From: Alphaproteobacteria bacterium | Lineage (GTDB): Bacteria; Pseudomonadota; Alphaproteobacteria; UBA8366; GCA-2717185 | Length of the DNA: 64,000 nucleotides | Reading direction: 5' to 3' | Assembly: GCA_012103325.1 (NCBI GenBank) | Contig: WLWY01000014.1 | Coordinates: forward strand, 21,218-85,217 | Shown here: piece by piece, positions 33,839 to 64,000 of the stretch | How positions within the stretch are numbered: the stretch's first letter is position 1 | Layout: the number at the start of each line of letters is the position of its first letter | Position numbers and translations under genes: made by a program | Notes under the pieces: generated by a model | The model's database searches: none | Seen by the model: the letters and a program-made list of their open reading frames with translations, nothing else | Told to the model about the DNA's origin: nothing

Positions 33839-33910
33839 CCGGCAATGGCAAGGTGACCGTTTGAATCCATGCCGAGGGCTGTTCCCCACGGAACCCCGCC
33901 TATCACCCTT

Positions 33911-33921
33911 GGGCTTGGCCC
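33911..33921. repeat. target-site duplication (left copy) GGGCTTGGCCC
   Basis: The identical 11-mer recurs at 35190-35200, immediately outside the IS inverted repeats. Confidence 0.7.
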
Positions 33922-40168: not shown

Positions 40169-40248
40169 CCATCGCGGCTATAATGCGATATCGCAACGGT
40201 TCGGCAAACCGTCCGCTTCACCCGCGTAATAATACCAAGGATCGTTTT

Positions 40249-42333
40249 ATGAGTTACCGCATCGGCGTCGATATCGGTGGCACCTTCACAGACTTCGCGC
40301 TGTATGGAGCGGACGGCGGCACAATGGCCATCCACAAACAATTGACCACACCGGACGATCCCTCCGTTGCCGTGCTCGAAGGGATCGGCGACCTGCTGTC
40401 CCGCAACGATGTTGCCATGGCGGCTGTGGACGAAGTCGCCCATGGCACGACACTGGTTACCAACGCCATCATCGAGCGGCGCGGTGCCGTCACCGGGATG
40501 CTGGTAACCAAGGGCTTCAGCGATATTCCCGACATGCGGCTGGAGCAACGCTACGACCTGTTCGATCTGCGGCTCGAGTTTCCAACTGCACTCGTCGACC
40601 GGCCGCGACGCCGCGAGATCGCGGAACGCATCCGCTTCGATGGCACCATCGCCGAAGCCGTCGACCTGGACGCAGCGCGCAAGGCGATCGGCGATCTGGT
40701 GGAAACGCATGGGATCGAAGCGCTGGCCGTCTGCTTTTTGCATGCCTATGCAAACCCGGCGCACGAGACAGCGGTCGCGGAAATGGCAAGACGTGACTTT
40801 CCCGATCTCTACGTGACCGCATCGGCGGACGTGGTGCCGTCGATGCGCGAGTACGAGCGCTGGACCACGGCTTGCATCAACGCCTACACGCAACCCATGT
40901 TCGACCGTTATCTCGGCCGGCTGGAAGGCGGGCTGTCGGAACTGGGGTTCACCGGCAAGCTGTACATCATGACATCGAGCGGCGGCGTGCTGGCCCCCGA
41001 TGCCGCCCGGCAGTATCCCGTCCGCATGCTCGAATCCGGCCCCGCGGCAGGTGTCCTGATGTCCGCGCTGCACGGGCGCGCGATGGATCTGCCGGAACTG
41101 CTTTCCTTCGATATGGGCGGCACGACCGCGAAGGGCGCGCTGGTCCGGGGCGGCGCGCCGCTGCGCAAGTACGAGATGGAAGTCGCCCGGGTGCACGATT
41201 TCAAGCGCGGCAGCGGCCTGCCGGTCGTCACGCCGGCCATCGACATGATCGAAATCGGCGCCGGCGGCGGCTCGATTGCAGACATCGATGAGCGTGGGCT
41301 CCTGCGCGTCGGACCGCACAGCGCGGGCGCCGACCCCGGCCCCGCCTGCTACGGCGCCGGCGGCAGGAAGGCAACCCTGACCGACGCCAATCTGATCCTT
41401 GGCTATCTCGACCCCGATCATTTTCTCGGCGGTGACATGGCGCTGGACGTGAAGGCCGCAGAGCAGGCCATTCAGGATACGGTCGCGACGCCGCTGAGCC
41501 TCGACCTGCCCCGCGCCGCTTGGGGCATTCACGAAATCATCAACGAGGATGTTGCCCGCGCCTTTCGCATTCACGCCTCGGAGCGCGGTTTCGATTACCG
41601 GGATTCGAGCATGGTCGCGTTTGGTGGGTCGGGGCCGCTGCACGCTCTGGCCATCGCCCGCATCTTGAAGGTTCCCCGCGTGATCTTCCCCATCGGCGCT
41701 GGGGTGATGTCGGCATTGGGCTTGTTGGCGAACCCGCTGGCCTTCGAATTGAGCCGGTCGCGCATCGCCTTGCTCGACGATCTCGACCGGGAAGCCTTTG
41801 CGGCCACCTTCGCGACGCTGATCGACGATGCCACCGGCTTCCTACGGCGCGCCGATATCGCATCCGGCGATATCACCGTCCGGTGCATTGTCGACATGCG
41901 CTATTACGGACAAGGCCGGGAGATCGAAATCGTCCTACCGGATACCAATATCGCGGCACAGTTCGACGCACTGACCACATTGTTCGAAGCACGATACGCG
42001 GCGCTGTTTTCGGTCAGCACGCCGGGAGGGCCGCTGGAAATCGTCAACTGGAAGGTCGAGGCCACGGGACCCGATACAGGTCTGCAAAGCGGCTACAAAA
42101 TGACGACCGCGGCTGCCGCGAAAAGCGACGCCCGGAAAGGCATACGCCGCGCCTATTTCAACACCGACGCTTACGATTGCCCCGTCTACGACCGTTACCA
42201 GCTCGACGCCGGTGTGACAATCGAAGGGCCGGCCATGGTCGAGGAGCGGGAATCGACCTGCGTCATCGGTCCCGGCGAAACGGCCAATGTAGATGCTGCC
42301 GGAAATCTGATCGCTGAGCTGGGAGTGAACTGA
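40249..42333 (+). CDS. hyuA: hydantoinase/oxoprolinase family, A (beta) subunit
   Basis: MSYRIGVDIGGTFTDF start typical of HyuA / N-methylhydantoinase A / acetone carboxylase beta. Trimmed from the ORF-track start 40147 to ATG 40249. Confidence 0.9.
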   Translation: MSYRIGVDIGGTFTDFALYGADGGTMAIHKQLTTPDDPSVAVLEGIGDLLSRNDVAMAAVDEVAHGTTLVTNAIIERRGAVTGMLVTKGFSDIPDMRLEQRYDLFDLRLEFPTALVDRPRRREIAERIRFDGTIAEAVDLDAARKAIGDLVETHGIEALAVCFLHAYANPAHETAVAEMARRDFPDLYVTASADVVPSMREYERWTTACINAYTQPMFDRYLGRLEGGLSELGFTGKLYIMTSSGGVLAPDAARQYPVRMLESGPAAGVLMSALHGRAMDLPELLSFDMGGTTAKGALVRGGAPLRKYEMEVARVHDFKRGSGLPVVTPAIDMIEIGAGGGSIADIDERGLLRVGPHSAGADPGPACYGAGGRKATLTDANLILGYLDPDHFLGGDMALDVKAAEQAIQDTVATPLSLDLPRAAWGIHEIINEDVARAFRIHASERGFDYRDSSMVAFGGSGPLHALAIARILKVPRVIFPIGAGVMSALGLLANPLAFELSRSRIALLDDLDREAFAATFATLIDDATGFLRRADIASGDITVRCIVDMRYYGQGREIEIVLPDTNIAAQFDALTTLFEARYAALFSVSTPGGPLEIVNWKVEATGPDTGLQSGYKMTTAAAAKSDARKGIRRAYFNTDAYDCPVYDRYQLDAGVTIEGPAMVEERESTCVIGPGETANVDAAGNLIAELGVN

Positions 42334-42496: not shown

Positions 42497-44134
42497 ATGA
42501 CGGAGCAGACATACGACGCAGTAAGCCTCGCCATCATGTGGGACCGCCTGATCTCGGTTACCGACGAGATCGTCTCGACCCTGGTACGCACGTCCTTTTC
42601 GACCATCGTGCGGGAAAGCTACGACCTGTCCGTCGTGCTGCTGGACGCCGATGGGCGATTGATGGCGCAAGGCTCCTACAGCGTGCCGGTCTTCATCGGC
42701 ACGGCGCCGCGCACTCTGCGCTACATGCTGGACAAGTTTCCGCCGGAGACCCTGCGCCCCGGCGACGTGATTGCCACCAACGACCCCTGGATGGGGACCG
42801 GCCACATCTTCGATATCTCCGTCATGCGGCCGGTGTTTCGCGGCGACAGGCTTGTCGGCTACACGATGAGCATTACGCATCTGCCGGATATCGGCGGGCT
42901 CGGCTTCGGCGCTTCAGCCACGGAGATATTCCACGAAGGCCTGCGCCTGCCGATCTGCAAGCTCGCGAACGAAGGGGTGCTGGACCCTTTTATCCTGGAG
43001 CTGGTCGAAGTCAATGTGCGAGTGCCGGACCAGACAATCGGCGATCTGCTTGCCAACGTCACCTGCAACGAAGTCGGTGGCCGGCAGCTGCTCGACTTCA
43101 TGGACGAATATGGTGTCGAGGATCTCGGTCCCCTTTCCGAGGCGATCCGTGCCCAGTCGGAGCGGGCGATGCGCGACAAGATCGCCGAGATCAAGAACGG
43201 CACTTACCGCCACGAAATCCAGATCGAAGGAGTCGAGGCGCCGATTACGCTTGCCTGCACCTTGGCGGTCGAGGATGAGGATATCCACGCCGACTTCACC
43301 GGCACCGGCGGCTGCGTGCGGCACGGCATCAACGTGCCGCTCTGCTACACCAATGCGATGACGCTCTATGCCATCAAGTGCCTGACCGCCGGCAACATCC
43401 CGAACAATGAAGGCTTCACCCGTCCGGTCACGGTCAGCGCGCCGGAAGGCTGCCTGCTCAACGCACAGCCGCCCTCGCCCACCGGCGGGCGGCACATCAT
43501 CGGTCACTTTGTGCCGTCACTGATCTTCGGCGCGCTGGCCGACGCGGCACCGGACAAGGTGCAGGCGGATTGCGGCATGATGGATTTGATGACGATCCAG
43601 GGCACCGCCCCGAACGGCCGCGGCATCTCCACGATATATTTCTCCGCCGGCGGCTTCGGCGCCCTCTCCGGCCAGGACGGCCACGACACCGTGCCGGGCC
43701 CGTCCAACATGGCAGTCGTGCCAGTCGAAACGTGGGAGACCATCACCGGCATGACGGTGATGGAAAAGCGCTTCCTGCCCGATTCCGGCGGTCCCGGCGC
43801 AGCGCGTGGCGGTGTCGGCCAAGCCGTCGTCCTTCGCAATGACAGCGGCCATCCCATGACCGTCTTCTGCATGGCCAACCGCACGGAATTTCCACCGGTC
43901 GGCTATCACGGCGGGCAACCGGGCCAGATGCGCGAACATCAGATCAACGGCAAAACCGTGCACCCCAAGGGCAGCTATATCCTGCAGGACGGCGACACGA
44001 TCACGTTGCAACAGGCCGGCGGCGGCGGGATCGGCGCCCCCAAGGACCGGCCGCGCGAGAAGGTGCTGGCGGACATCGAAGCCGGGTTTGTGACAAAAGA
44101 GGGTGCAGATCGGGATTATGGCGTCGAGATCTAA
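42497..44134 (+). CDS. hyuB: hydantoinase B/oxoprolinase family protein
   Basis: 545 aa. AGGAGG Shine-Dalgarno. DPWMGTGHIFDISVMRPVF and C-terminal GGGGIGAP...R...V..D motifs typical of HyuB. Paired with hyuA. Confidence 0.9.
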   Translation: MTEQTYDAVSLAIMWDRLISVTDEIVSTLVRTSFSTIVRESYDLSVVLLDADGRLMAQGSYSVPVFIGTAPRTLRYMLDKFPPETLRPGDVIATNDPWMGTGHIFDISVMRPVFRGDRLVGYTMSITHLPDIGGLGFGASATEIFHEGLRLPICKLANEGVLDPFILELVEVNVRVPDQTIGDLLANVTCNEVGGRQLLDFMDEYGVEDLGPLSEAIRAQSERAMRDKIAEIKNGTYRHEIQIEGVEAPITLACTLAVEDEDIHADFTGTGGCVRHGINVPLCYTNAMTLYAIKCLTAGNIPNNEGFTRPVTVSAPEGCLLNAQPPSPTGGRHIIGHFVPSLIFGALADAAPDKVQADCGMMDLMTIQGTAPNGRGISTIYFSAGGFGALSGQDGHDTVPGPSNMAVVPVETWETITGMTVMEKRFLPDSGGPGAARGGVGQAVVLRNDSGHPMTVFCMANRTEFPPVGYHGGQPGQMREHQINGKTVHPKGSYILQDGDTITLQQAGGGGIGAPKDRPREKVLADIEAGFVTKEGADRDYGVEI

Positions 44135-48437: not shown

Positions 48438-48471
48438 CTTTGCCACCAAAGCTTCTTTGAGAGAATATGAC

Positions 48472-49488
48472 ATGATGCAGCGAAACAACTTCCTGGACGT
48501 AATCTATACCCATACGGAGGGGGAGCCGACCTGCATCATTCATAGCGGCATCCCCTACCCGCACGGGCTCGACATTCTCGGCAAGCGCCAGTTCCTGATC
48601 GACAATTTTGACCACGTCCGAACCGCGCTGATGCAGGAACCGCGCGGCCACAACGACATGTTCGGCGTTTTCCTAACACCGCCGTCGCAACCGGACATGG
48701 ACGCCGGCATGCTGTGGATCGACGGCGAACGGTTCGTCGAGATGTGCGGCCACGGCACCATCGCGCTCGCCATGGTGATGGCGTCACACGGTATGATGCG
48801 AAAGGTCGAAGAGCCCTCGACCTGGATCAACTTCGAGACCCCGGCCGGCCCTGTGAAGGCCGAAGTCCATAGCGAAAACGGTGCGGCGCAGTGGACCCGG
48901 TTCCAGAACGTGCCCGCCTTCGTGTTCGCCCAGGACGTACCCATCGAACTGCCCGGCTACGGCGCGCTGACGGCGGACATCTCCTTCGGCGGCAACTTCT
49001 TCGCCGTCGTCAGATGGCCGGATACGGAACGGCCCATCGGCCTGGAGAACGGCAAGCTGCTCTCAGAAATGGGCCTGCTGGTCAAGGAGCAGATCAACGC
49101 CAAGATGAACGTCCAGCACCCGGTCGAGAAACATATCCAGGGCCTGCATTTCTGCACTTTCTGGCAGGACGGCGACCGGCCCGACAGCCTGTACAGGAAC
49201 GTGCATGTCTTCAGCGACGGCAAGCTCGACCGCTCACCCGGCGGCACCGGCACCAGCATGATGATGGCGACCTTCGAAGCACGCGGAAAGATGAAGATGG
49301 GCGAGACGATCAAGTCCGAAGGGCTGCTCGGCAGCGGCCAGTTCGAAGGCTGCCTGATCGGCGAAACGACCATCGGCAACCACCGCGCCGTCATTCCCAC
49401 GGTGAAGGGCACCGCGAAAATCACCGGCTACGCGAAGTGGCTGCTCGATCCCGATGACCCCGTGGGACAGGGGTTCGTTATTCGCTGA
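48472..49488 (+). CDS. proline racemase superfamily protein (4-hydroxyproline epimerase / 3-hydroxyproline dehydratase-like)
   Basis: YTHTEGEPTCII, first catalytic motif EMCGHG, and second motif DRSPGGTGTS, where Gly sits at the position where racemases and epimerases have Cys. Start placed at ATG 48472. Confidence 0.85.
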   Translation: MMQRNNFLDVIYTHTEGEPTCIIHSGIPYPHGLDILGKRQFLIDNFDHVRTALMQEPRGHNDMFGVFLTPPSQPDMDAGMLWIDGERFVEMCGHGTIALAMVMASHGMMRKVEEPSTWINFETPAGPVKAEVHSENGAAQWTRFQNVPAFVFAQDVPIELPGYGALTADISFGGNFFAVVRWPDTERPIGLENGKLLSEMGLLVKEQINAKMNVQHPVEKHIQGLHFCTFWQDGDRPDSLYRNVHVFSDGKLDRSPGGTGTSMMMATFEARGKMKMGETIKSEGLLGSGQFEGCLIGETTIGNHRAVIPTVKGTAKITGYAKWLLDPDDPVGQGFVIR

Positions 49489-49513
49489 ACCACCGATCCA
49501 ACGAGAGAACATC

Positions 49514-49990
49514 ATGAGCAAAGGCAAGAAACACCACTACGAAATCAGTATGGTCTGGACCGGCGCGACAGAAGGCCCGGCGAAGGATTATCACACCTAT
49601 TCGCGGGAGCATCGTTTCGAAGCGCCCGGCAAGCCGCCTCTTATCGGTTCGGCCGACCCGGCCTTCCGGGGCGATGCCGGCCAATACAATCCGGAAGAAC
49701 TGTTGCTCGCCGCCCTATCCGGTTGCCACATGCTTTGGTATCTGCATCTCTGTACGGCGAAGAAAATCACCGTCGTAAGCTACGAAGACCACGTCGAGGG
49801 CATGATGACGGAGGAACCCCGGGCCGGACGCTTCGTCGAAGCGACGATCAAGCCGACGGTCACCATCGCAGCAGGGGACGATGTGGCACTGGCGGTAGAG
49901 CTGCACGAACGGGCGCACAGTGAGTGCTTCATTGCCAATTCGGTCAATTTCCCGATCCACTGCGAACCGACGATTCAGACTCAGGATTGA
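49514..49990 (+). CDS. OsmC family peroxiredoxin-like protein
   Basis: 158 aa. Two conserved Cys contexts, LSGCHMLWY and HSECFIANS. Confidence 0.8.
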   Translation: MSKGKKHHYEISMVWTGATEGPAKDYHTYSREHRFEAPGKPPLIGSADPAFRGDAGQYNPEELLLAALSGCHMLWYLHLCTAKKITVVSYEDHVEGMMTEEPRAGRFVEATIKPTVTIAAGDDVALAVELHERAHSECFIANSVNFPIHCEPTIQTQD

Positions 49991-49999
49991 TTCACCTTC

Positions 50000-50891
50000 T
50001 TATGCCCCGCGACGGCGGACTAACTCGCGGTGCAGAATGTAGAGCCCGCTCAGAATGAGGATCACCGTGCCCGCCACGACCCATTGATCGGGCAGATCGT
50101 CCCAGAAGATGTACCCAAGTCCGCCGGCCCAGAGGATCGACGAATAGCGGAAGGGCGCGACGAGGCCTGCTTCGGCCATGCGGAAGGTCTCTACCATGCA
50201 ATAATGGCCACAGCCGGTGATCAACCCGCCGACCGCGATCAGGGCAAAATCTTCGGTGCTCGGCAGCTTCCAGGTACCGGCGACAACGGTACACAGGCCC
50301 GCGAGGCCGACCGCGGCCGTCGTCGTCACCAGAATGCCATTGGCGGTTTCCCGCGCGTTCGTCATGCGCCGCGTAAACAGATCGCGCGTGGCATCCATCA
50401 ACGCCGTCCCAAGCGGCAGCAGTGCCGCCAGCCGCCATAGATCGCCGCCGGGTCGGATAATGACCAGGACTCCGATGAAACCGACCACAACCGCCGCCCA
50501 GCGCCGGATTCCGACATGCTCCCCCAGGACCGGTGTTGCCAGGGCGGTGAGGAACAGCGGTGCGACGAAGGTGATCGCGATCACGTCGGCCAAGGGTAGG
50601 AGCCGCACCGCATTCATGAACAGGAAGGCGGAGCATACGACACAGGATGCCCGCAGGAGATGGACCTTGGGGTTACCGATCCGGGCGGAGTGACCCCCCC
50701 CCGGCACGCCAGATGAAGAAACCAATCGCCACGAAGATGAAAGCCGAACGCATGAACAGGACTTGGCCTGCCGGGTAGCCCGCCGACAGCAATTTCAGGA
50801 TCGCGTTGTTCAGGCTCATGAAGAAACTGCCGGCGAGCATGAACATGATCCCATACAGCGGCGCGTTCGCCGTCGCCCGGTCCGACTGCAT
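50000..50891 (-). pseudogene. DMT/EamA family permease, reading frame broken in a G9 homopolymer
   Basis: N-terminal 66 codons (MQSDRATANAPLYGIMFMLAGSFFMSLNN...FIWRAGGG) run from ATG 50891 and stop at 50673. The remainder (HSARIGNPKVHLLRAS...RELVRRRGA) continues in another frame down to 50000. The two parts align end-to-end with the upstream paralog. The frame change maps to C9 at 50694-50702 (plus strand). Confidence 0.8.
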
Positions 50892-51784
50892 CAATTCGAA
50901 CCGCCGCGCTGCCGCATCATTTCCCGGCGCAGGATGTACAAACCACTGGCCACCAAAATCACGGTCCCCGCAATCACCCAGGTATCCGGCAGATCCCCCC
51001 AGAACAAATACCCCATCGCAACGGCATACAAGATGCTGGAATATTTGAACGGCGCGACGAGACCGGCTTCCGCATGGCGAAAGGTCTCGATCATGCAGTA
51101 ATGTCCGAAGCCACTGACCATGCCGCCCATGGCGATCAAGGCGAAATCCTTGGGAGTCGGGACAATCCAGCCCAACGGCAAGGTCATCAGGCCGGAGAGG
51201 GCCACAGCCGCCGTCGTTGTTACCAGAATCGAGTTCGACGTTTCCCGCGGCGCGATACGCCGCGTGATCAAGTCGCGCATCGCCGCGGCAAAGGCCGAGC
51301 CTAGTGGCAAAAGTACGGCCAGGCGCACCACATCGCCGGTCGGCCGCGTGATGATCAGGACACCGATGAAGCCAACGAGGACTGCCGACCAGCGCCGCCA
51401 TCCGACAAATTCGCCCAGTACCGGCGTCGCAAGCATGGTGATGAAGAGCGGTCCCGCAAAGGAAATGGCAGTGGCATCCGCAAGCGGCAGATACTTCACG
51501 CCGGTGACGAACATGAAAGCAGACGCAATCGTGAAGGCAGCGCGGAGTACGTGACCCTGAAAGCTCTCGACACGCGCAGATTTGAAGCCGCCTTCGCGCC
51601 AAATAAAATAAGCGATAGGGATGAAGATGAAACTACCGCGCATGAACAGAATCTGGCCCGCGGGGTAGCCCGCTGACATCCATTTCAGAACCGCGTTGTT
51701 CAGGCTCATGAAGAACGTGCCTGCGAGCATGAACAATATGCCGCGCAGAGCAGCGGAAGAAGAATCAGGCACGTTTGGCGGCAT
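50891..51784 (-). CDS. DMT/EamA family permease
   Basis: 297 aa, ~10 TM helices, two EamA-like halves. Its stop TGA overlaps the ATG of the downstream paralog (TGATG). Confidence 0.88.
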   Translation of the reverse strand: MPPNVPDSSSAALRGILFMLAGTFFMSLNNAVLKWMSAGYPAGQILFMRGSFIFIPIAYFIWREGGFKSARVESFQGHVLRAAFTIASAFMFVTGVKYLPLADATAISFAGPLFITMLATPVLGEFVGWRRWSAVLVGFIGVLIITRPTGDVVRLAVLLPLGSAFAAAMRDLITRRIAPRETSNSILVTTTAAVALSGLMTLPLGWIVPTPKDFALIAMGGMVSGFGHYCMIETFRHAEAGLVAPFKYSSILYAVAMGYLFWGDLPDTWVIAGTVILVASGLYILRREMMRQRGGSN

Positions 51785-51787
51785 GCG

Positions 51788-52807
51788 CTAGGCGCGCAGA
51801 TTTCTGATGGGCTTCGTCACCGTATCGCTGCCACCGGACCAGAGCGGCAGATACGTCATCTTTATGCCGGGGCCGCCCGTAACAATGGGATGGATATCCG
51901 CCGGCGCACGGGCCAGGGGCCGGCCGTCAAGGTCGCCAACGCCTTCATACGGAAAGGGCCGGCGCATTTCGTATAGGTAGGTCTGCACCCGAGTGAGATC
52001 CCAGCCATGGTTGGCGAGAGTGTCCGCCATCTCCGGCGATATCAGGAAGACCTGTTCGCCGCGTTCCGGCTTCCGCGTGGCGCTGGTTACGTCAATCGCC
52101 GCATTCATGGCGGCGGCAACGGGCTGCAGGACTAGTTCGGGCCCGTCGCGCTCCGCGGCCGGCAGGACTTCGTCCGTGCCAGACACGCCCAGCACCGTGA
52201 CGGCACTCTCTCCAGCGTCTAGGCCGCGCCGAACGTGCAAAGGCGGAAAGCCAACATGGTCGCCTTCAGCAAAACAGAACGTGTATTTGCCCGGCTGTCC
52301 CATCGTCGCCATATCGGCGATCCCGGCGCGCGCGCCGCCAACATTGCGCATCACGAGACTGACCGCCCGGCCAATGCAGGCGTTCGCGCGATTGCCGGGG
52401 CCGAGACAATTGCTACCGGCGTTGAGGCCGAGCTGCTGGACAATCGGCCCATGCACACAGACCGCCACCGCTGGTGTCCCCGTCGTGCTCAGAACGCCGA
52501 GCAGATTGAATTGCGGTTCGATACAGGCTTCAGCCGCCGTCAATACGACCGGCAGTTCTTCCGGTCGGCAACCGGCGAGAACGCAATTGTAGGCGACGGC
52601 CTTCAGGGTGAGTTCGCCCATTAGAGGCATGACATGGCCGAAAGACTGATCGGGTGCGCCACGTCCGTCCAGCATCGCGCTCAGCCGGTCCAGCGTCGGC
52701 GGCACCAGCGGCAGCCCATCGCTCAGCTCCACCCCTTCGAGCGCCGCCTGGCACTCTTCCCAGGACAGCGACCCGTCGAAGAGCGGCATATCATGCGGAT
52801 CGGGCAT
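51788..52807 (-). CDS. conserved hypothetical Cys-motif protein, divergent paralog C
   Basis: 339 aa from ATG 52807 (MPDPHDMPLFDG...). Shares SDGLPLVPPT, AGCR, GSNCLGPGNRAN, GQPGKYTFCFAEG and HVRRG with the two upstream genes. The ORF-track start 53224 is a spurious extension into the upstream gene. Confidence 0.8.
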   Translation of the reverse strand: MPDPHDMPLFDGSLSWEECQAALEGVELSDGLPLVPPTLDRLSAMLDGRGAPDQSFGHVMPLMGELTLKAVAYNCVLAGCRPEELPVVLTAAEACIEPQFNLLGVLSTTGTPAVAVCVHGPIVQQLGLNAGSNCLGPGNRANACIGRAVSLVMRNVGGARAGIADMATMGQPGKYTFCFAEGDHVGFPPLHVRRGLDAGESAVTVLGVSGTDEVLPAAERDGPELVLQPVAAAMNAAIDVTSATRKPERGEQVFLISPEMADTLANHGWDLTRVQTYLYEMRRPFPYEGVGDLDGRPLARAPADIHPIVTGGPGIKMTYLPLWSGGSDTVTKPIRNLRA

Positions 52808-53847
52808 CAGAGGTTTGCGACGCGGACGGAACAGTCTTCGGTGGAACCGAAAGTCGGAATATAGGCCGAGTGCTTGCCAGGCCCGCCGGCGACCAGGACC
52901 TGAATGCGGTCGGGCGATGGGGTCAGGTAGAACTTGCCGTTCATCACATTGCTTTCCCGATCGACCGTGTAGCTGCGCCGTTTCTCTTCCGGTACGCGGT
53001 CCACATCGATTGCGGAGGCTTCGTAAATCTTCTCCTGGATGTCCACAATCGACAACCCGTCGCGGTGGATCGTCTGCGCATGCTCCGGGCCGAGCGCCAC
53101 GATGTAGGGACCGTGACCGTGGAGAATATTGGCGCCAGTCTGAGAAATGGTCCCGGCAATGGTCGTGAGGATGCCGTCGGCGGTCGTGCTGGCATGGTCG
53201 TTGATGTTGTGCGGCGGCTCGCAAGACATAACTGTCACGACGCTGTCACCGGCCTCGAAGCCGCGACGTACGTGATAGGGCTCCCAAGGGCTCTCCTCCT
53301 CGTTCTCGCCGAAGCAGAATGTGAATTTGGCCGGCGAGCCCTGCGTCGCACGGTCCATCTCGCCCGGTTTGCCGCCCCCGATATTCAAAAGCGTGAGCTG
53401 CAACGCCCGGCCAATCGTGGCGTTCGCGCGATGCCCCTGGCCGAAACAGTTGCTGCCGCTATTGATATCGAGCGAGCGCCGCAGCGGCCCGTTGACGATC
53501 AGCGTGGGAGCGCAGGGATGGGTCGTCGCGAGAGTCCCGTGCAGGTTATAGGCGGGATTGAGAACGGCCCGGACAGCGGAAACGACGACCGGAAAATATT
53601 CCGCGCGGCATCCGGCCATGACCGCATTCGCCGCAATCCCGCGCAAAGTCGGCACAAGGCGGCGCGGCGACATCGGCGGAAACGGCTCATTGTCGCCGCG
53701 GCAAGTCTCAACAAAGCGCTCAACCGCGTCCTCCGTCGGCATGACGAGCGGAAGACCATCGCTCCAGCCCTGCTCGATGGCATAGTCGTTCCATTGTCCG
53801 GGATCGAAATCGCCAATGTCGAGGAACTCGCCGTCAGACATGCGCAA
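52807..53847 (-). CDS. conserved hypothetical Cys-motif protein, paralog B
   Basis: 346 aa, roughly 80% identical by eye to paralog A. Its stop TGA overlaps the ATG of paralog C. Confidence 0.85.
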   Translation of the reverse strand: MRMSDGEFLDIGDFDPGQWNDYAIEQGWSDGLPLVMPTEDAVERFVETCRGDNEPFPPMSPRRLVPTLRGIAANAVMAGCRAEYFPVVVSAVRAVLNPAYNLHGTLATTHPCAPTLIVNGPLRRSLDINSGSNCFGQGHRANATIGRALQLTLLNIGGGKPGEMDRATQGSPAKFTFCFGENEEESPWEPYHVRRGFEAGDSVVTVMSCEPPHNINDHASTTADGILTTIAGTISQTGANILHGHGPYIVALGPEHAQTIHRDGLSIVDIQEKIYEASAIDVDRVPEEKRRSYTVDRESNVMNGKFYLTPSPDRIQVLVAGGPGKHSAYIPTFGSTEDCSVRVANL

Positions 53848-54877
53848 CCCGCACCGAGCAGGCTTCGGTGAAACCGAAGGTCGGAATATAGGCGGAGTGC
53901 TTGCCGGGGCCGCCCGCGACCAGCACCTGGATGTCTTCCGGCGAGCGGGTCAGATAGTAGTGGTCGTCGACCGGTTCCTGCTCGCGGTCCTGCTCGTAGT
54001 TCGTCCGGTTCTCCGCCGATACGCGGGAAATGTGCACAGCGGACGCTTCGTAGAGCTTCTGCTGGATGTCCGGCACCGTCCAGGCGTCGCGATGGACCGT
54101 CTGCGCGTGCTCCGGCCCGAACACGACCGTATAGGGCGCCGTTCCGTAGATGACATTGGCACCGGTCTGCGAGATCGTGCCCGCAATCGTCATCAAAATG
54201 CCTTCGCCCGTCGTGCTGGCGTGATCGTTGACGTTATGCGGCGGCTCGCAGGGCAGTACCGTGACAACGCTGTCGTTCGCGTCGAAACCGCGGCGCACAT
54301 GATAGGGCTCCCACGGGCTCTCCTCTTCGTTCTCGCCAAAGCAGAAGGCGTATTTCGCCGGCGACCCTTGCGTTGAGCGATCCATCTCGCCCGGTTTCGC
54401 ACCGCCGACATTCAGCAAGGTCAATTGCACCGCGCGGCCAATGGTGGCGTTGGCGCGATGCCCCTGACCGAAACAGTTGCTGCCGCAATTGATATCCAAT
54501 TGTTTTCGGATTGGACCATTGAGGATCACGCCTGGCGCGCAGGGATGCGTCGTCGCCAAGGTGCCGTGCAGATTGTAGTCCGGATTGAGCAAGGCCCTCA
54601 CCGTCGAGACGACGACCGGAAAGTATTCCGCCTTGCATCCCGCCATAACCGCGTTCGCCGCGATGCTGTCCAATGTCGGGATGACCCGGCGCGGCGGCAT
54701 CGGTGGAAAGGGCTCGTTGTCGCCGCGGCAGGTTTCGACGAAGCGCGCGACCGCATCCTCCGTCGGCGCCAGCAAGGGCATGCCGTCGCTCCAGCCCTGG
54801 TCGATGGCATAATCGTTCCACTGCGCGGGATCGAGATCGCCGACCTCGATCACCTCGCTTTCAGTCACATCAGTCAT
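53834..54877 (-). CDS. conserved hypothetical Cys-motif protein, paralog A
   Basis: 347 aa. AGGAG Shine-Dalgarno between the TAA of the upstream selenoprotein gene (54886-54888) and ATG 54877. Overlaps paralog B by 14 nt. Confidence 0.85.
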   Translation of the reverse strand: MTDVTESEVIEVGDLDPAQWNDYAIDQGWSDGMPLLAPTEDAVARFVETCRGDNEPFPPMPPRRVIPTLDSIAANAVMAGCKAEYFPVVVSTVRALLNPDYNLHGTLATTHPCAPGVILNGPIRKQLDINCGSNCFGQGHRANATIGRAVQLTLLNVGGAKPGEMDRSTQGSPAKYAFCFGENEEESPWEPYHVRRGFDANDSVVTVLPCEPPHNVNDHASTTGEGILMTIAGTISQTGANVIYGTAPYTVVFGPEHAQTVHRDAWTVPDIQQKLYEASAVHISRVSAENRTNYEQDREQEPVDDHYYLTRSPEDIQVLVAGGPGKHSAYIPTFGFTEACSVRVAHV

Positions 54878-54885
54878 AATACTCC

Positions 54886-55413
54886 TTAAGCGCCGACAGC
54901 CTGCTTCAGTTCACCGGACGCCACGCCGATCCGTTCCGCCAACTCTTCGGCATTCAGCCCGCCGATGGGATGTTTGACGATCAGCAGTTTCGGATCCGCC
55001 TTACGCGCCTTGGCTTGCGCCCGCACCAGTGGCAGGAAGGTTTCGGTAATAACGATGTAGGTTTCGACGCCGCGTTTTTCGAGTTCGATACTGTCATGGA
55101 AACTCCACGACGAGCACGACCCTCAATCCGCCAGAGCGAGTATCGCCCCTTTGTATTTTCCGGCGACCTGCTCGATCAGTTCCGGCGGTGCGGGTTGCGC
55201 CGCGCTGTCCTTGAACAGGTAATCAATATTGTCGGTCGCGCGGAACGCGCCCATCTGGTCGCGCACGCCCTCAAGCAGTTCACGCGCGTTCGGTTTCGAG
55301 TTCGAGATAATGGCGATCGGGTCGCTGCCCCAATCGGCGGTACCGGCAATTACCGGCTCGCTGCTGTTGTCGGCCGCTTCCGGCAAGCCGAACGATGGAT
55401 TGACGATACGCAT
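54886..55413 (-). CDS. predicted selenoprotein, 175 aa, with in-frame TGA (Sec) in a D-U-G-S-C motif ('UGSC'-type)
   Basis: ATG 55413 (GGAGA Shine-Dalgarno upstream) ... KGAILALAD-TGA(55125-55123)-GSCSSWSFHDSIELEKRGVETYIVITETFLPLVRAQAKARKADPKLLIVKHPIGGLNAEELAERIGVASGELKQAVGA-TAA(54888-54886). The 78 codons after the TGA contain no ATG/GTG/TTG start in frame. They end exactly at the Shine-Dalgarno of the next gene. Hairpin 11 nt after the TGA; selB in the window. Confidence 0.75.
55089..55116 (-). promoter_or_regulatory. candidate bacterial SECIS hairpin
   Basis: mRNA positions +12 to +30 after UGA: GUCGUGGA-GUU-UCCAUGAC (8-bp stem, GU-containing apical loop). Extendable by UGCU/AGUA with a bulged C. 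Confidence 0.5.
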
Positions 55414-55491
55414 TCTGGTCTCCTTTTGCGAAGACCCACAGCCTAGTACTCTCTGCCGGAAAGAGGCAATACGTATCAGGGAGGAACCGGC

Positions 55492-56301
55492 ATGCGTCTC
55501 AAAGATAAGGTCGCCATCATCATCGGTGCGGGTCAGGCGCCAGGCGCCAGCGAGGCAATCGGCAATGGCCGCGCCACGGCGCTGCTTTTCGCCCGCGAAG
55601 GCGCCAAGGTCTTCTGCGTCGACCGCAATCTCGATTCGGCACAGGAGACCGCCAACCTCATCGGCAAAGAGAGCGGCGAAGCGGCCGCAACCGCCGCCGA
55701 CGTGACGGACGAAGACGCTATCGCCGCGGCGATCAGAGGCTGCGCCGACACATGGGGCCGAGTCGACATTCTGCACAACAATGTCGGCATCAGCGTCGAA
55801 GGAGGAGACGCCCCCCTCGCCGACGTAACAACCCAGGCGTTCGACCGGATCATGGACGTGAACCTTCTCGGCACCATGCTGGCCTGCAAACACGTCCTGC
55901 CGATCATGCGAGAACAAAACGGCGGCACCATCGTCAACATTTCCTCCGCCTCGTCCTACTGGACGGGACACCCGACGGTCCTCTATCCGGCGTCGAAGAT
56001 GGCGATGGTCAGCTTCACGCGTCAGATTGCCATTCAGAATGCGGACCGCGGCGTGCGGGCCAACGCCATCCTGCCCGGCCTGATGGATACGCCGATGGCG
56101 GTCGACCGCCGGGTCGAGGCGCTGGGCCGCACGCGCGAGGACATCGCCGCCGAGCGTGACGCTAAAGTTCCTCTGCTCGGCAAGATGGGCAACGGCTGGG
56201 ACGTGGCCTACGCTGCGCTGTTCCTCGCTTCAGACGAGGCGCGGTTCATCACCGGGATCGAAATGCCGGTCGACGGCGGTTCACTCGCCCGGGTCGGCTA
56301 A
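55492..56301 (+). CDS. SDR family oxidoreductase
   Basis: 269 aa. Gly-rich cofactor motif (IIGAGQAPG...), NNVG, catalytic YPASKMAM (YxxxK). Divergent from the selenoprotein operon across 78 bp. Confidence 0.88.
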   Translation: MRLKDKVAIIIGAGQAPGASEAIGNGRATALLFAREGAKVFCVDRNLDSAQETANLIGKESGEAAATAADVTDEDAIAAAIRGCADTWGRVDILHNNVGISVEGGDAPLADVTTQAFDRIMDVNLLGTMLACKHVLPIMREQNGGTIVNISSASSYWTGHPTVLYPASKMAMVSFTRQIAIQNADRGVRANAILPGLMDTPMAVDRRVEALGRTREDIAAERDAKVPLLGKMGNGWDVAYAALFLASDEARFITGIEMPVDGGSLARVG

Positions 56302-58499: not shown

Positions 58500-60206
58500 A
58501 TGATTTACGATTATATCATCGTTGGCGGCGGTTCCGCCGGATCGGTGCTGGCGAACCGGCTGTCCGCGCGCAGCAGTAATACCGTGCTGGTGTGCGAAGC
58601 CGGCCAGGACACGCCGCATGGCAAGGTGCCGGCGGTCATCCTCGACAGCTATCCGGGTACCGCCTATCTCGACACGCGGTTCCATTGGACCGAACTTAAG
58701 GTCACGACACAAGTCGTCTCGCACAACAATCCCGACGAAAACCGCCCGCCCCTGCGCAAGTACGAGCAGGCCCGCGTTCTCGGCGGCGGCTCGTCGATCA
58801 ACGGTCAGTTGGCCAATCGCGGCGCGCCAAGCGACTTCAACGAATGGGACTCGCGTGGCGCCAAGGGCTGGGGTTGGGATTCCGTGCTGCCCTATTTCAA
58901 GAAGGTCGAGCGCGATATGGATTTCGACGGCCCCTACCACGGCAAGGAAGGCCGAATCCCCGTACGGCGCATCTTTCCCGACCTGTGGAACGGCTACTCG
59001 AAAGCGGCCGGTGAAGCGTTCAAGGCATCGGGCTTCGAATACCTCCCCGACCAAAATGGCGAGTTCAAGGACGGCTATTTTCCGATCACCTCGTCCAACG
59101 CCTACGAACGCCGTGTGTCCGCAGCAATCGGCTATCTCGACCCCGGCACACGGTTGCGCAAGAATTTGATGATTTCCACAAACACGCAAGTCCAGGAGCT
59201 CTTGTTCGAAGGCACGAAGTGCGTCGGCGTCAAGGCGCTGGTCGACGGTAAACAAACCGAATTTCGCGCCAACGAGGTCATCGTTTCCTCCGGCGCGATC
59301 CATTCGCCCGCGCATCTGATGCGCGCCGGCATCGGGCCGGTCGGGCATCTGAAGGATATGGGGATCGAAGTTCGCGCGAACCTGCCGGGTGTCGGCCAGC
59401 GCCTGATGGACCACCCCTCGATCGCCTGCGCCTCGTTCATCAAGCCGGAAGCGCGGATCAATGAATATACGCGCCGTCACATTCAGGTCTCCCTTCGCTA
59501 TTCCTCGGGGATCGGCGACGCCCCGCAGGGCGATATGTTCGCTGCGGCCGTCGCCAAATCCTCTTGGCATGCCGTCGGCGAGCAAATTGGGTCGATGATT
59601 ATTTTCGTGAACAAGACCTATTCGGAAACCGGACAGGTCAAACTAGCCTCCGCCGACTGGCGCGACGAACCGACGGTGGAGTTCAACCTTCTGTCCGACA
59701 AGCGCGATCTCGACCGGTTGGTCGACGGCTTTCGGCGCATGGCGATGCTGCAAGAGCACCCCGCGATGAAGGCGGTTACGAGCAATGTCTTTCCCGCAAG
59801 CTACAGCGACAAGGTCAAGCAGGTCGGTCTGGTCAATCGCAAGAACAAGATCCTGACCGGCATCATGGCGAAGCTGCTCGACGGTCCCGCATCGCTGCGC
59901 CGGTTTCTGATCGAGAAGCTGGTCATGGAAGGCTTCACCGTCGACGACGTGGTGCAGGACGACGACAAAGCCGAAGCCTTTGTGCGCGGCGCGGCGGTTG
60001 GCGTCTGGCACGCATCCTGCACCTGCCGGATGGGCACCGACGACGATCCGATGGCGGTCACCAGCAACACAGGCCGGGTTCGCGGCGTACAGGGTCTGCG
60101 CGTCGTCGACGCTTCGATCTTTCCGGTCGTGCCCTGCGCCAACACCAACTTCCCGACTCTGATGACCGCGGAGAAGATTAGCGATGCCATCCTCGACGGG
60201 CGCTGA
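58500..60206 (+). CDS. GMC family FAD-dependent oxidoreductase (choline dehydrogenase-like), copy 1
   Basis: 568 aa. YDYIIVGGGSAGSVLANRLS FAD fingerprint, GGGSSINGQ, C-terminal HASCTCRMG and the ...VVDASIFP active-site region. Confidence 0.92.
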   Translation: MIYDYIIVGGGSAGSVLANRLSARSSNTVLVCEAGQDTPHGKVPAVILDSYPGTAYLDTRFHWTELKVTTQVVSHNNPDENRPPLRKYEQARVLGGGSSINGQLANRGAPSDFNEWDSRGAKGWGWDSVLPYFKKVERDMDFDGPYHGKEGRIPVRRIFPDLWNGYSKAAGEAFKASGFEYLPDQNGEFKDGYFPITSSNAYERRVSAAIGYLDPGTRLRKNLMISTNTQVQELLFEGTKCVGVKALVDGKQTEFRANEVIVSSGAIHSPAHLMRAGIGPVGHLKDMGIEVRANLPGVGQRLMDHPSIACASFIKPEARINEYTRRHIQVSLRYSSGIGDAPQGDMFAAAVAKSSWHAVGEQIGSMIIFVNKTYSETGQVKLASADWRDEPTVEFNLLSDKRDLDRLVDGFRRMAMLQEHPAMKAVTSNVFPASYSDKVKQVGLVNRKNKILTGIMAKLLDGPASLRRFLIEKLVMEGFTVDDVVQDDDKAEAFVRGAAVGVWHASCTCRMGTDDDPMAVTSNTGRVRGVQGLRVVDASIFPVVPCANTNFPTLMTAEKISDAILDGR

Positions 60207-60300: not shown

Positions 60301-62001
60301 ATGAGTTACGACTATATCATCGTCGGTGGCGGTTCGGCGGGGTCGGTGATGGCAAACCGTCTGTCGGCGAAAAGCGCAAACCGGGTCCTGCTGCTCGAAG
60401 CCGGTATCGATACGCCGCACGGCAAGGTGCCGCCGGATATTCTGGATAGCTATCCCGGCACCGCGTACTTCAATCCGCAATTCATCTGGAACGACCTGAA
60501 GGTCCATCTGCAACCGGTCTCGCACAACGCGCCGGATCAACGGCCGCCGTTGCGCAAATATGAGCAAGCGCGCGTCATGGGGGGCGGCTCGAGCATCAAT
60601 GGCCAGCTTGCCAATCGCGGCGCACCGCACGATTACGACGATTGGGAAGCGATGGGGGCCGAGGGCTGGAACTGGGAGTCCGTACTCCCCTATTTCCGGA
60701 AACTCGAACGCGACATGGATTTCGACGGCGAGTTTCACGGCAAAGAGGGACGCATTCCGATCCGCCGTCTCTTTCAGGACCTTTGGTCGGAGTTCGCGCA
60801 CGCATCAGCGGAAGGCTTCAAATCGGTCGGCTTCGATTACATCGAGGACCAGAACGGTAAGTTCCGCGACGGTTACTTCCCGCTAACGATGTCCAACGCC
60901 TACGACCGTCGGGTCTCCGCCGCCATCGGCTATCTTGACCCCGCGAGCCGGCAACGCCCGAACCTCGATCTACGTGCCGAGACGCGCGTCCAGGAAATCC
61001 TGTTCGACGGCACGAAGGCGACCGGTGTCGTTGTCAATCACAAAGGCCAAACGGAAACGCACCACGCCAACGAGATCATCCTCTGCTCCGGCGCCATACA
61101 TTCGCCCGCAATGCTCCTTCGGTCTGGTATCGGTCCCGTGGGACATCTGAAGGATATGGGCGTCGAGGTTCGCACCGCCCGCGAGGGCGTTGGGCAGAAC
61201 CTGATGGAACATCCGGCCATCGCCGTCTCCGCTTATCTGCATCCTTTCGCCCGACTCGATCCGCAGACCCGGCGGCACATCCATGTCGGCCTACGTTATT
61301 CATCGAAGTTAGGCGACTGCCCGCCGGGCGATATGTTCGCAGTTTGCGTCACAAAATCGGCGTGGCATTCGGTCGGCGACCGGCTCGGCTCGTTTCTCTC
61401 CTGGGTCAACAAATCCTATTCCACCGGGCAGGTCGTTCTGAATTCCGCCGATTGGCGCTCGGAACCAACGGTCGAGTTCAACATGCTGTCGGACCGGCGC
61501 GACCTGGACCGCCTGATGGATTGCTTCCGAATGCTGGTTCAAGTCTTCGAAAATCCACAGATGCAAAACGCGACCACAGATACGTTTCCATCAAGCTACA
61601 GCGAACGGGTGCGGAAAGTCGGCGTCGTTACGACGCGGAACAAGATCATCACTGGCGTAATGGGCCGGCTTCTCGATGGACCCGGCTGGCTGCGCAGCAA
61701 ACTTATTCAGTCGGTCTTGACCGAAGGCGACGACCTGCAAACGCTACTCAGCGATGACGATGCACTCGAAGCCTATATCCGCCGCACCGTGACAGGTACG
61801 TGGCACGCCTCCTGCACCTGCCGTATGGGCCGTGAGGACGACCCGATGGCGGTGACGGACCCTGCCGGCCGCGTACGCGGCGTTGCCGGGCTACGTGTCG
61901 TCGATGCGTCGGTCATGCCACGAGTGCCCTGCGCCAACACCAATATCCCGACCATCATGACATCGGAGAAGATCGCCGATGCCGTCCTTGCGGGGCGTTA
62001 G
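60301..62001 (+). CDS. GMC family FAD-dependent oxidoreductase, copy 2 (tandem paralog)
   Basis: 566 aa, collinear with copy 1 (roughly 60-65% identity by eye), same motifs. Confidence 0.92.
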   Translation: MSYDYIIVGGGSAGSVMANRLSAKSANRVLLLEAGIDTPHGKVPPDILDSYPGTAYFNPQFIWNDLKVHLQPVSHNAPDQRPPLRKYEQARVMGGGSSINGQLANRGAPHDYDDWEAMGAEGWNWESVLPYFRKLERDMDFDGEFHGKEGRIPIRRLFQDLWSEFAHASAEGFKSVGFDYIEDQNGKFRDGYFPLTMSNAYDRRVSAAIGYLDPASRQRPNLDLRAETRVQEILFDGTKATGVVVNHKGQTETHHANEIILCSGAIHSPAMLLRSGIGPVGHLKDMGVEVRTAREGVGQNLMEHPAIAVSAYLHPFARLDPQTRRHIHVGLRYSSKLGDCPPGDMFAVCVTKSAWHSVGDRLGSFLSWVNKSYSTGQVVLNSADWRSEPTVEFNMLSDRRDLDRLMDCFRMLVQVFENPQMQNATTDTFPSSYSERVRKVGVVTTRNKIITGVMGRLLDGPGWLRSKLIQSVLTEGDDLQTLLSDDDALEAYIRRTVTGTWHASCTCRMGREDDPMAVTDPAGRVRGVAGLRVVDASVMPRVPCANTNIPTIMTSEKIADAVLAGR

Positions 62002-62637: not shown

Positions 62638-64000
62638 CTAACGGTCGTTCTCTCCAAAAATTTCACTCGCACCGGCAATCAGCTGACGGCCATCCCCCGT
62701 CCGGCGCGTGAATCCGCGCTTATCGAAAAATTCTAGCAGAATAATCGCGAGATTCCGGCCGAGCCCTGAACGCTTGTTGTAAGCGCCAGCGGAAAAATTA
62801 CCGTCCGGCAACTCAGCCGCCATGTCTTCGCCGATTTGGGCCAACGCGAGAACCGTTTCCGGCAGGAAATAGCGATTGTCCGCCACACGGACCACCAATC
62901 CCGCCCGTGCGGCGCGCTGCAGGAAACGTTCGGTCGCCCGCCCGTCCAACGCCACCTCCTCGGCGATTTCCAGCACGCGGGGCGGCCGCAACCCGTGTTC
63001 CCGCAGCATTGGCTCGATCTGCGCCCAGAGCGCCGTGTCCTCCGTTGAAAAGGACGGCCGATGTCCCGGCAACATCAAATGCGTACCGTCCCGGGCGATA
63101 CGTTTCTCGCGCAACAGGTCCAGCGCGAGAGCGCTAAATACAGCCGGCGACGGCGAATGCGGGAGCGCGCGTCGAAGCCGCTCCTCCTCCGGCCCCGGCT
63201 GGTCGGGCCGCCGGGTGTGCCAGTCCTTCAAGGTCGCAACCACATCGTCGCGCAGCGCATCCCACGAGGGCCGCGCGATACCGACCGGATCGCGTGGCGG
63301 GCCGAGCCGGACCATATCGACGCTGTCCCAAAGCAGTTCCGCTTCCTCCGGCGCGATATTGCGCGCCTGCGCGAAGCGGTTCAGATCGACACCGCCAAGG
63401 CTCCCTGCGAGAATTTCCGTCAACGCCTCCGCCGCATCCGGGTTTGCCATCGCCCGAACCATCGTTAGCCGCTGCGGCCGGGCCCGCCCCCGCGCCGGCG
63501 AGAACGGATCAACGATCCGTCCGCCGCCGATCGTCCGCTGCGCCGACTGGTCACGTAAAATGAACCGGTCCCCGGCGAGCGCACCAACCGGCCCGTCGAG
63601 CACAAGCTGCACGAGACCCGTTTCCCCAGGTGTGATGGAGCCGCCCTCCAAGATCGCCACGCGCCCCGTCACCGCCGCAGCCGCCAGATGGGCATGCACC
63701 GGTGTCCAGTGTCGGAACGACCGCTGTTCCGAGCCCAGAATACGGACCATCGCATCGGCGCGGCGTGTCGGCGCGTGCGCCGTTTCGGCCAGGATCCAGT
63801 CGCCGCGGCGCACTGATTCCTTGTCGATATCGGCGCCGGTGATATTGAGCGCGCATCGTTCGCCGGCCAGCCCGCTATCCGCCTTGCGGTCCTGCGCGTG
63901 GATGGCGCGGACGCGAACCGGGTGTCCTGCCGGAGACAGCAGCAACCGGTCCCCCACCGCAACGTTTCCCGAATAAACGGTCCCGGTAACAACCAGTCCC
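62638..64000 (-). CDS. selB: selenocysteine-specific translation elongation factor SelB (5'-truncated by window edge)
   Basis: The frame stays open to the window edge (GLVVTGTVYSGNVAVGDRLLLSPAG...). EF-Tu-like beta-barrel domains II/III come first. A long C-terminal winged-helix extension follows (...ERFLQRAARAGLVVRVADNRYFLPE...NLAIILLEFFDKRGFTRRTGDGR), which is characteristic of SelB. Confidence 0.85.
   Translation of the reverse strand, partial: GLVVTGTVYSGNVAVGDRLLLSPAGHPVRVRAIHAQDRKADSGLAGERCALNITGADIDKESVRRGDWILAETAHAPTRRADAMVRILGSEQRSFRHWTPVHAHLAAAAVTGRVAILEGGSITPGETGLVQLVLDGPVGALAGDRFILRDQSAQRTIGGGRIVDPFSPARGRARPQRLTMVRAMANPDAAEALTEILAGSLGGVDLNRFAQARNIAPEEAELLWDSVDMVRLGPPRDPVGIARPSWDALRDDVVATLKDWHTRRPDQPGPEEERLRRALPHSPSPAVFSALALDLLREKRIARDGTHLMLPGHRPSFSTEDTALWAQIEPMLREHGLRPPRVLEIAEEVALDGRATERFLQRAARAGLVVRVADNRYFLPETVLALAQIGEDMAAELPDGNFSAGAYNKRSGLGRNLAIILLEFFDKRGFTRRTGDGRQLIAGASEIFGENDR

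Follow-up and report, generated by a model that had tools for sequence, protein, structure and literature searches.

A predicted UGSC-family selenoprotein with a covarying SECIS-type hairpin and its genetic coupling to an unannotated protein family in an alphaproteobacterium

A UGSC-containing protein was initially recognised in Hyphomonas neptunium and in a symbiont of a gutless worm (PMC1976440). It was later described as a selenoprotein with no known function that is 'likely' thioredoxin-like and is sometimes fused to a domain named 'Unknown_1', and, with 255 selenocysteine (Sec) forms versus 21 cysteine (Cys) forms in the Global Ocean Sampling (GOS) data, it represents a major aquatic selenoprotein family (PMC2398784). 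Reviews group UGSC with the thioredoxin-fold redox selenoproteins (PMC2398784, PMC13188914), and a review from 2026 still counts it among the selenoproteins with largely uncharacterised functions (PMC13188914). Here, a gene of this family is described in a stretch of 64,000 nucleotides from an alphaproteobacterial genome (contig WLWY01000014.1, positions 21,218 to 85,217), which is referred to as the window. The gene heads an operon with three paralogous genes of an unannotated protein family, here called X. The selenoprotein as such is no novelty, as its family was published in 2007-2008 and is represented by curated models in Pfam and NCBIfam. The additions of this analysis are a correction of the annotation, a covariation-backed selenocysteine insertion sequence (SECIS), a flavodoxin-like fold prediction, and a UGSC-X module with an optional gene for a thioredoxin reductase (TrxR)-like flavoprotein.

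Small redox proteins that serve a client enzyme are well established. Such redoxin-enzyme modules include Trx-MsrA/B, Grx-Prx and Trx/Grx-coupled ArsC, which are fed by a thioredoxin-reductase-type flavoprotein. Sec is also used in the subunits of glycine reductase, where the selenoprotein GrdA is a Se-carboxymethyl carrier with a C-x-x-U motif and GrdB carries a U-x-x-C motif. The latter motif is found in PrdB as well (PMC2398784). The published consensus for bacterial SECIS elements comprises a loop of 3-9 nt, a stem of 4-16 bp, a spacing of 16-37 nt and a minimum free energy (MFE) of at most -7.5 kcal/mol, with a G within the first two loop positions that is usually followed by G or U (PMC13188914).

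On the minus strand of the window, the frame opening with the ATG at 55413 comprises 96 codons, a TGA at 55125-55123, 78 further codons and a TAA at 54888-54886 (Table 1). The residues flanking the TGA read A-L-A-D-U-G-S-C-S-S-W. A hidden selenoprotein gene with an in-frame TGA had been proposed at this position from the sequence alone (the original prediction), and the minus-strand translation of 54886-55413 reproduces the 78 codons beyond the TGA that had been read by hand. Only one entry of the mechanical list of open reading frames (ORFs), at 55123..55971 (282 aa, GTG start), represents the UGSC locus. It consists of the 96-aa N-terminal half of UGSC and an extension that overlaps a divergent short-chain dehydrogenase/reductase (SDR) gene at 55492-56301, in agreement with the earlier suggestion that the list holds the pre-TGA part with a spurious N-terminal extension. 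The true start is 55413, because the alignments of all 80 relatives described below begin at residue 1 (MRIVNPSFG) and an AAGGAG is located 6 nt upstream of this ATG. At the other end, the TAA lies 8 nt before the ATG of the next gene with an AGGAG between them, as had been stated, and the final A of the TAA is part of this AGGAG. The statement that the 78 codons contain no possible start holds for ATG but not for the alternative start codons: GTG and TTG occur in frame, and a 46-aa ORF with a GTG start was found at 54886..55026, inside the post-TGA part. These codons leave the single-gene conclusion unchanged. A stop-free run of 78 codons has a chance probability of P ~0.09 at 61% GC. Therefore, the open frame alone proves nothing, and the comparative evidence is decisive.

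Table 1. Positions of the UGSC gene, its sequence elements and the associated genes in the window.
Feature	Position	Strand	Description
UGSC-family selenoprotein gene	54886..55413	-	175 codons including Sec97, then TAA; translation, Pfam and NCBIfam matches, 80 full-length orthologous loci
In-frame UGA, codon 97	55123..55125	-	read as selenocysteine in D-U-G-S-C
Shine-Dalgarno-like AAGGAG	55420..55425	-	6 nt 5' of ATG 55413; read from the sequence, putative function
SECIS core (candidate)	55093..55111	-	8-bp stem, 55111-55104 with 55100-55093; apical loop GUU at 55103-55101
Extended lower stem of the hairpin	55079..55126	-	includes the UGA itself; from the MFE fold, conserved less than the core
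X1a	53834..54877	-	347 aa; unannotated family; 8-nt gap after the UGSC stop
X1b	52807..53841	-	X1a paralogue, 75% identity; ATG overlaps the X1a end by 8 nt
X2	51788..52807	-	distant X1a paralogue, 35% identity; 1-nt overlap with the X1b stop (TGATG)
EamA-family transporter gene	50891..51784	-	Pfam PF00892; ATG 3 nt after the X2 stop
selB (Sec-specific elongation factor)	62638..64000	-	C-terminal ~450 residues; Pfam matches; N-terminus past the window end

A scan with one genome per species yielded 196 relatives, and the best 80 of them (62-95% amino acid identity) were analysed. They stem from marine Alphaproteobacteria, Rhodospirillaceae metagenome-assembled genomes (MAGs), Reyranella, Vineibacter and Enhydrobacter. 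Every one of these 80 relatives aligns from residue 1 to the end and has the TGA at the same column. In addition, 80 metagenome contigs were retrieved using an alignment of UGSC+X fusion proteins as the query. They contain 65 UGSC motifs, with TGA in 60 and Cys in 5 of them, and the TGA is thus found at the same column across 140 independent loci of the genome and metagenome sets. Distant full-length homologues carry Cys opposite the UGA of the window (C-G-[SAGN]-C) in 30 of 30 aligned sequences. Homologs spanning the TGA with either Sec or Cys at this column are what the original prediction had named as support. The conservation extends to both sides of the codon. Mean identity is 77% for the C-terminal half versus 66% for the N-terminal half, and the substitutions at codon positions 1/2/3 amount to 0.20/0.15/0.49 after the TGA versus 0.25/0.17/0.50 before it, which are both coding patterns. 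A conserved in-frame UGA with coding-type conservation on both sides, the mark of a SelB-dependent selenoprotein gene, is therefore present. On this comparative sequence evidence, UGA97 is taken to be recoded to Sec, with one 175-residue UGSC-domain protein as the predicted product.

The opposite view, that the TGA is a true stop, a sequencing error or a codon reassigned to Trp or Gly, and that the 78 codons beyond it represent either a remnant or a gene of their own, is extremely improbable and already contradicted. Gene callers do end at this codon, in-frame GTG and TTG codons follow it, and the 120 database homologues listed include 118 fragments that end at the Sec codon, typically with 96 aa. 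Two database entries appear to be full-length (P0001 and P0002), and their sequences render the UGA as Gly or Trp. This indicates translation with the wrong genetic code, and the P0002 sequence also runs past the real stop and includes the beginning of the X gene. A true stop or an error is, however, at odds with the recurrence of the TGA at 140 independent loci, with a post-TGA half that is better conserved than the pre-TGA half and shows a coding substitution pattern, with the Cys at this column in distant homologues, and with the presence of a covarying SECIS. A genome-wide reassignment does not apply either, because TGA is the ordinary stop of 49 of the 81 orthologous UGSC genes and of the neighbouring operon genes X1a and X1b.

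The hairpin that is proposed to direct this recoding spans 11-30 nt past the UGA, and its loop begins 19 nt after the UGA. With a loop of 3 nt starting with GU, a stem of 8 bp, a spacing of 19 nt and an MFE of -9.3 kcal/mol for the core and -22 kcal/mol including the lower stem, it complies with every published constraint. Like the bacterial SECIS of the E. coli fdhF type (consensus of Zhang and Gladyshev 2005, summarised in PMC13188914), it is a hairpin within the coding sequence directly after the UGA, has a small apical loop starting with G-U, and has a fitting spacing. It differs in that no Rfam model matches it. The single-sequence z-score of the hairpin is -1.6.

Within the set of 81 close orthologues, the stem is invariant, and there is accordingly no covariation. 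The lower-stem pairs are conserved only in part, and the number of double changes in the close orthologue set is 0. Nevertheless, synonymous sites in the core are frozen: among 69 conserved degenerate codons in the 81 coding sequences, only 5 are codon-invariant, and these are codons 96, 102, 104, 105 and 107. Ser102 is always encoded by UCG and Ser104 always by AGU, each being 1 of 6 possible codons, whereas other conserved Ala and Thr codons make use of all four codon choices. His106 varies between CAU and CAC, which corresponds to a G-U or a G-C pair in the stem. For the covariation analysis, 57 diverged metagenomic Sec-form sequences were added, resulting in 94 distinct sequences in register. 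In this set, 95.5% of the stem cells are paired, changes on both sides occur in 6 of the 8 stem pairs (24 cells), and all 94 sequences have G and U as the first two bases of the loop. The pairing and covariation values were reached by none of 500 shuffles and by no slid register. The support for the SECIS thus came only from the diverged metagenomic sequences and the frozen synonymous sites. A search of this region for a SECIS had been proposed with the original prediction, and a SECIS-type hairpin covarying in most of its pairs is what it contains. By this account, the ribosome would not terminate at UGA97; the hairpin would act as the SECIS and be bound by SelB with GTP and Sec-tRNASec, and Sec would be inserted.

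The presence of selB in the same window, which had been noted before, could be substantiated by the Pfam domains Beta-barrel_SelB, SelB-wing_2, SelB-wing_3 and SelB_WH_2nd_bact. The gene is partial, and its frame stays open to the end of the window.

The product belongs to the UGSC family. With U replaced by C, it matches the Pfam family PF24696 (UGSC) with 114.4 bits versus a cut-off of 25, and residues 6-169 correspond to profile positions 5-166 of 172. No other Pfam family matches the product even at E-values up to 10. The sole NCBIfam match is NF041046 (110.1 bits, E 9e-32), whose name, 'UGSC family (seleno)protein', is the one that the original prediction had given. Its further remarks, that no function is assigned to the family and that the motif is a U-x-x-C redox motif, agree with the literature (PMC2398784, PMC13188914) and with the D-U-G-S-C motif and the alternation of Sec and Cys among homologues, respectively. 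The U/C-G-S-C motif of the family with this alternation is also evident from an exhaustive HMMER search with a homologue as the query, which returned 428 cluster representatives at E < 1e-3. Among the best 149 of these, ~102 are Cys forms with the pattern [AG]-[DE]-C-G-[SAGN]-C and ~45 are fragments. Alignment with the 30 distant full-length forms shows that N38, K40, K68, U/C97, G98, C100, D107 and P149 are invariant family-wide. Compared to the known family (prototype Hyphomonas neptunium ABI76733.1; Zhang and Gladyshev 2007-2008), the protein of the window shares the full-length domain, the U-G-S-C motif, the Sec/Cys alternation and a length of ~175 aa, and differs by its score below the NF041046 cut-off.

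The predicted fold also departs from the thioredoxin-like fold suggested in the literature. An AlphaFold2 (AF2) model of the homologue P0001 (62% identity; Gly at the Sec position) has a pLDDT of 81 and a pTM of 0.76 and consists of five successive beta-alpha units; the loop connecting strand 3 to the helix after it holds the Sec position. A Foldseek search of this model against the PDB returned flavodoxin-like domains, lumazine synthase and the GH3 alpha/beta domain with TM-scores of ~0.4-0.55, and there were no thioredoxin-fold proteins among the top 50 matches. A thioredoxin fold is not predicted on these grounds, and UGSC would instead form a small alpha/beta domain of the flavodoxin-like type. 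The classic layout of a CxxC/UxxC centre that had been proposed holds in part: the motif is positioned between a strand and a helix, but the predicted fold is not thioredoxin-like. According to the model, U97-G-S-C100 is placed where a redox-active pair capable of selenenylsulfide formation would be expected.

UGSC heads a tightly packed operon with the order UGSC, X1a, X1b, X2 and EamA, in which the gaps and overlaps at the junctions do not exceed 8 nt. The operon probably ends with the EamA gene, which is conserved beside the module in only ~5 loci of each of the genome and metagenome sets. The X proteins have a length of ~340-345 aa and are encoded by three tandem paralogues in the window. 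They have no Pfam match at E-values up to 10 and no NCBIfam match, and two different profile searches against the PDB gave no match better than E ~0.1. At least 7,908 homologues are present in the databases, and all of the 120 listed are unnamed or 'hypothetical'. Across 252 X sequences, Cys81 (93%) and Cys179 (95%) are conserved, as are D31, T110, N143, R148, D166, K175, E182 and E256. X appears to be an enzyme-like family with two conserved Cys residues plus conserved Asp, Arg, Lys and Glu residues, and it would merit a family definition of its own.

For X1a, an AF2 model with a pLDDT of 82 and a pTM of 0.85 was obtained. Foldseek matched it to class I fumarate hydratase (E ~1e-3, probability 0.9, TM-score 0.2-0.3, root-mean-square deviation 17 Å), and Toblerone-fold hydrolases were also borderline. 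A classification of X as a fumarate hydratase was not accepted, as the match is borderline, has a low TM-score and is accompanied by no sequence match. A three-Cys Fe-S cluster in X was considered and dropped because Cys135 is only 64% conserved. Class I (Fe-S) fumarate hydratase has three cluster-ligating cysteines, and only two Cys residues are conserved across the X family.

The linkage of UGSC and X is not restricted to the window. X follows UGSC in 77 of the 80 genome loci, in most cases with one copy each of the X1 and X2 types, and an X2-type copy is present in 74 of the 80. Moreover, both parts occur as a single protein. Among the 149 cluster representatives, ten are fusion proteins of 485-564 aa in which a UGSC domain with C-G-S-C forms the N-terminal part and X the C-terminal part; they match X1a in BLASTP with E-values from 1e-52 to 1e-94. 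In the metagenome contigs, an in-frame fusion to X is present in 30 of the 65 UGSC instances, with the TGA in 28 of them. UGSC is therefore considered to be genetically coupled to the X family, as judged from gene order and fusion. The fusion partner appears in the 2008 paper only as the unnamed 'Unknown_1', which we infer to be family X; in this analysis, the partner is defined as a family and as a near-constant neighbour.

A further neighbour is a gene for a TrxR-like flavoprotein (290 aa, Pyr_redox_2 domain, C-A-A-C-D-G motif), which is adjacent in 46 of the 80 genome loci (L033-L079, e.g. L071:5077-5988, L007, L009 and L012-L014). It is located either directly upstream of UGSC on the same strand or after X2. 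In the window and 11 close relatives among the 80 loci, the upstream position is taken by the divergent SDR gene. The other neighbours of the module vary and include TctC/Bug-type binding proteins, MmgE/PrpD, CoA-transferase III, enoyl-CoA hydratase, amidohydrolase, Liv-type ABC transporters and EamA.

On some metagenome contigs (L092, L102 and L116), two separate UGSC-X modules lie within a few kb of each other. The paired modules have differing motifs, e.g. AD-U-GSC-TSW and GD-U-GSC-SSG, and different yet still paired SECIS stems. CoA-transferase III recurs near UGSC-X modules in 6 metagenomic loci. In the window, a family III CoA-transferase gene at 38927-40168 (-) is adjoined by a hydantoinase/oxoprolinase A and B pair at 40147-42333 and 42497-44134 (+). 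A proline-racemase-family gene at 48457-49488 (+), which overlaps the start of an OsmC-like gene at 49454-49990 (+), is located ~1.4 kb past the end of the UGSC operon. A link of these two genes to the module was rejected, since they occur beside it in 1 of 80 and 0 of 80 loci, respectively.

Taken together, it is highly probable that the locus encodes a UGSC selenoprotein with a SECIS-recoded UGA and a flavodoxin-like domain that acts as a redox or selenol-carrier partner of X. Within this reading, UGSC is probably a dedicated redox (or selenol-carrier) partner of X1a, X1b and X2. The U97/C100 pair would cycle between the selenol/thiol and the selenenylsulfide in service of the X proteins. 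The TrxR-like flavoprotein encoded alongside in many genomes suggests an electron path from NAD(P)H via the flavoprotein and the Se/S pair of UGSC to X. A role as dedicated reductant is preferred because of this neighbour and because of the analogy to fused redoxin-enzyme modules. As in these modules, a small C/U-x-x-C domain stands beside or is fused to the presumed client enzyme, and an NAD(P)H-flavoprotein disulfide reductase is often encoded nearby. The differences are that the predicted fold of UGSC is not that of thioredoxin, that the client family X is unannotated, and that the window contains no reductase gene.

A different role is possible but rather unlikely, namely that UGSC is a catalytic or carrier selenoprotein subunit whose Sec would attack the substrate or carry a fragment of it, with X1a, X1b and X2 as substrate-binding subunits by analogy to GrdB/PrdB or GrdA. 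Tight linkage and frequent fusion to X would fit such an enzyme, and several paralogous X subunits suggest a hetero-oligomer. The variable neighbours are genes related to small acids and amino acids (TctC/Bug, MmgE/PrpD, CoA-transferase III, Liv ABC and EamA), which points in the same direction. Strong retention of Sec over Cys is typical where Sec is catalytically essential. Sec is kept far more often than Cys in this family, both in the two sets analysed here (80 of 80 and 60 of 65) and in the GOS data (PMC2398784). The selenoproteins of glycine and D-proline reductase resemble UGSC in being small to medium-sized and in their Sec-Cys pair; they work only in a multi-subunit enzyme and are recycled by thioredoxin reductase, as UGSC would be in this reading. 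However, no sequence similarity to GrdA, GrdB or PrdB was detected, UGSC remains the only Pfam match of the product at E-values up to 10, the window contains no grd or prd genes, and the context of UGSC is aerobic and alphaproteobacterial. The TrxR-like neighbour does not discriminate here, as it fits the reductant and the subunit role alike. It is improbable that UGSC is a stand-alone antioxidant or thiol-disulfide oxidoreductase of the peroxidase or thioredoxin type with only incidental adjacency to X. The U-x-x-C motif and the grouping with thioredoxin-fold redox selenoproteins in the reviews (PMC2398784, PMC13188914) are in line with this, but the predicted fold is flavodoxin-like, and the adjacency to X in 77 of 80 loci is accompanied by repeated in-frame fusions.

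Several observations count against a recoded UGSC that serves X as a redox partner. Neither selA, selC nor selD is present in the 64-kb window, and ARAGORN detected no tRNA in it, including tRNA-Sec. Rfam at gathering thresholds gave no match in the window, including the hairpin. Since sequence and covariance models capture bacterial SECIS elements poorly, this null result says little. At 110.1 bits, the NF041046 equivalog cut-off of 125 bits is missed, which makes the clade of the window a divergent UGSC member by NCBI's rule. In the AF2 prediction for P0001, only three sequences cover the C-terminal half, and X has no confident structural relative, so that its chemistry would be a guess. Because a fused query was used to rank the metagenome contigs, this sample is biased towards loci holding both domains. 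The window contains no TrxR-like gene, and the proposed electron source is thus missing here. Finally, fusion and operon linkage establish a functional association, while the direction and nature of the chemistry are beyond their reach.

Elsewhere in the window, a 9,269-codon ORF at 1151-28960 (-) with an N-terminal two-partner secretion (TPS) domain and DUF5649 repeats fills 43% of the sequence. A ShlB/FhaC-type POTRA/Omp85 transporter gene is located directly upstream at 29132-30868 (-), and both form a two-partner secretion system with an FhaB-like exoprotein. An IS4-type transposase gene (DDE_Tnp_1 and DUF4372) at 33869-35167 (+) is flanked by a GNAT acetyltransferase gene and an SDR gene. 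Two tandem paralogous genes for GMC-family FAD oxidoreductases at 58500-60206 and 60301-62001 (+) are placed between an MFS transporter gene and selB, and nothing was identified between them and selB.

Public protein collections contain UGSC almost exclusively as fragments ending at the Sec codon or as mistranslations with W or G. As a consequence, the window and most of the related MAGs need a manual correction of their annotation. Beyond the annotation, a broader view can be put forward tentatively: UGSC and X may constitute a widespread uncharacterised two-component selenoenzyme, in which X is a new fold or family that depends on a flavodoxin-fold Sec/Cys domain. This domain would be separate in the window and fused in many soil and aquatic bacteria, often with a TrxR-like flavoprotein of its own. 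If this is true, a selenoprotein family that ranks among the most abundant in aquatic environments would serve a new reductase as its redox arm, with a small metabolite as the substrate. UGSC has been without a functional lead for nearly twenty years, and its pairing and fusion with X together with the TrxR-like neighbour provide a concrete, testable hypothesis. The operon is present in cultured organisms, namely Reyranella, Vineibacter and Enhydrobacter aerosaccus.

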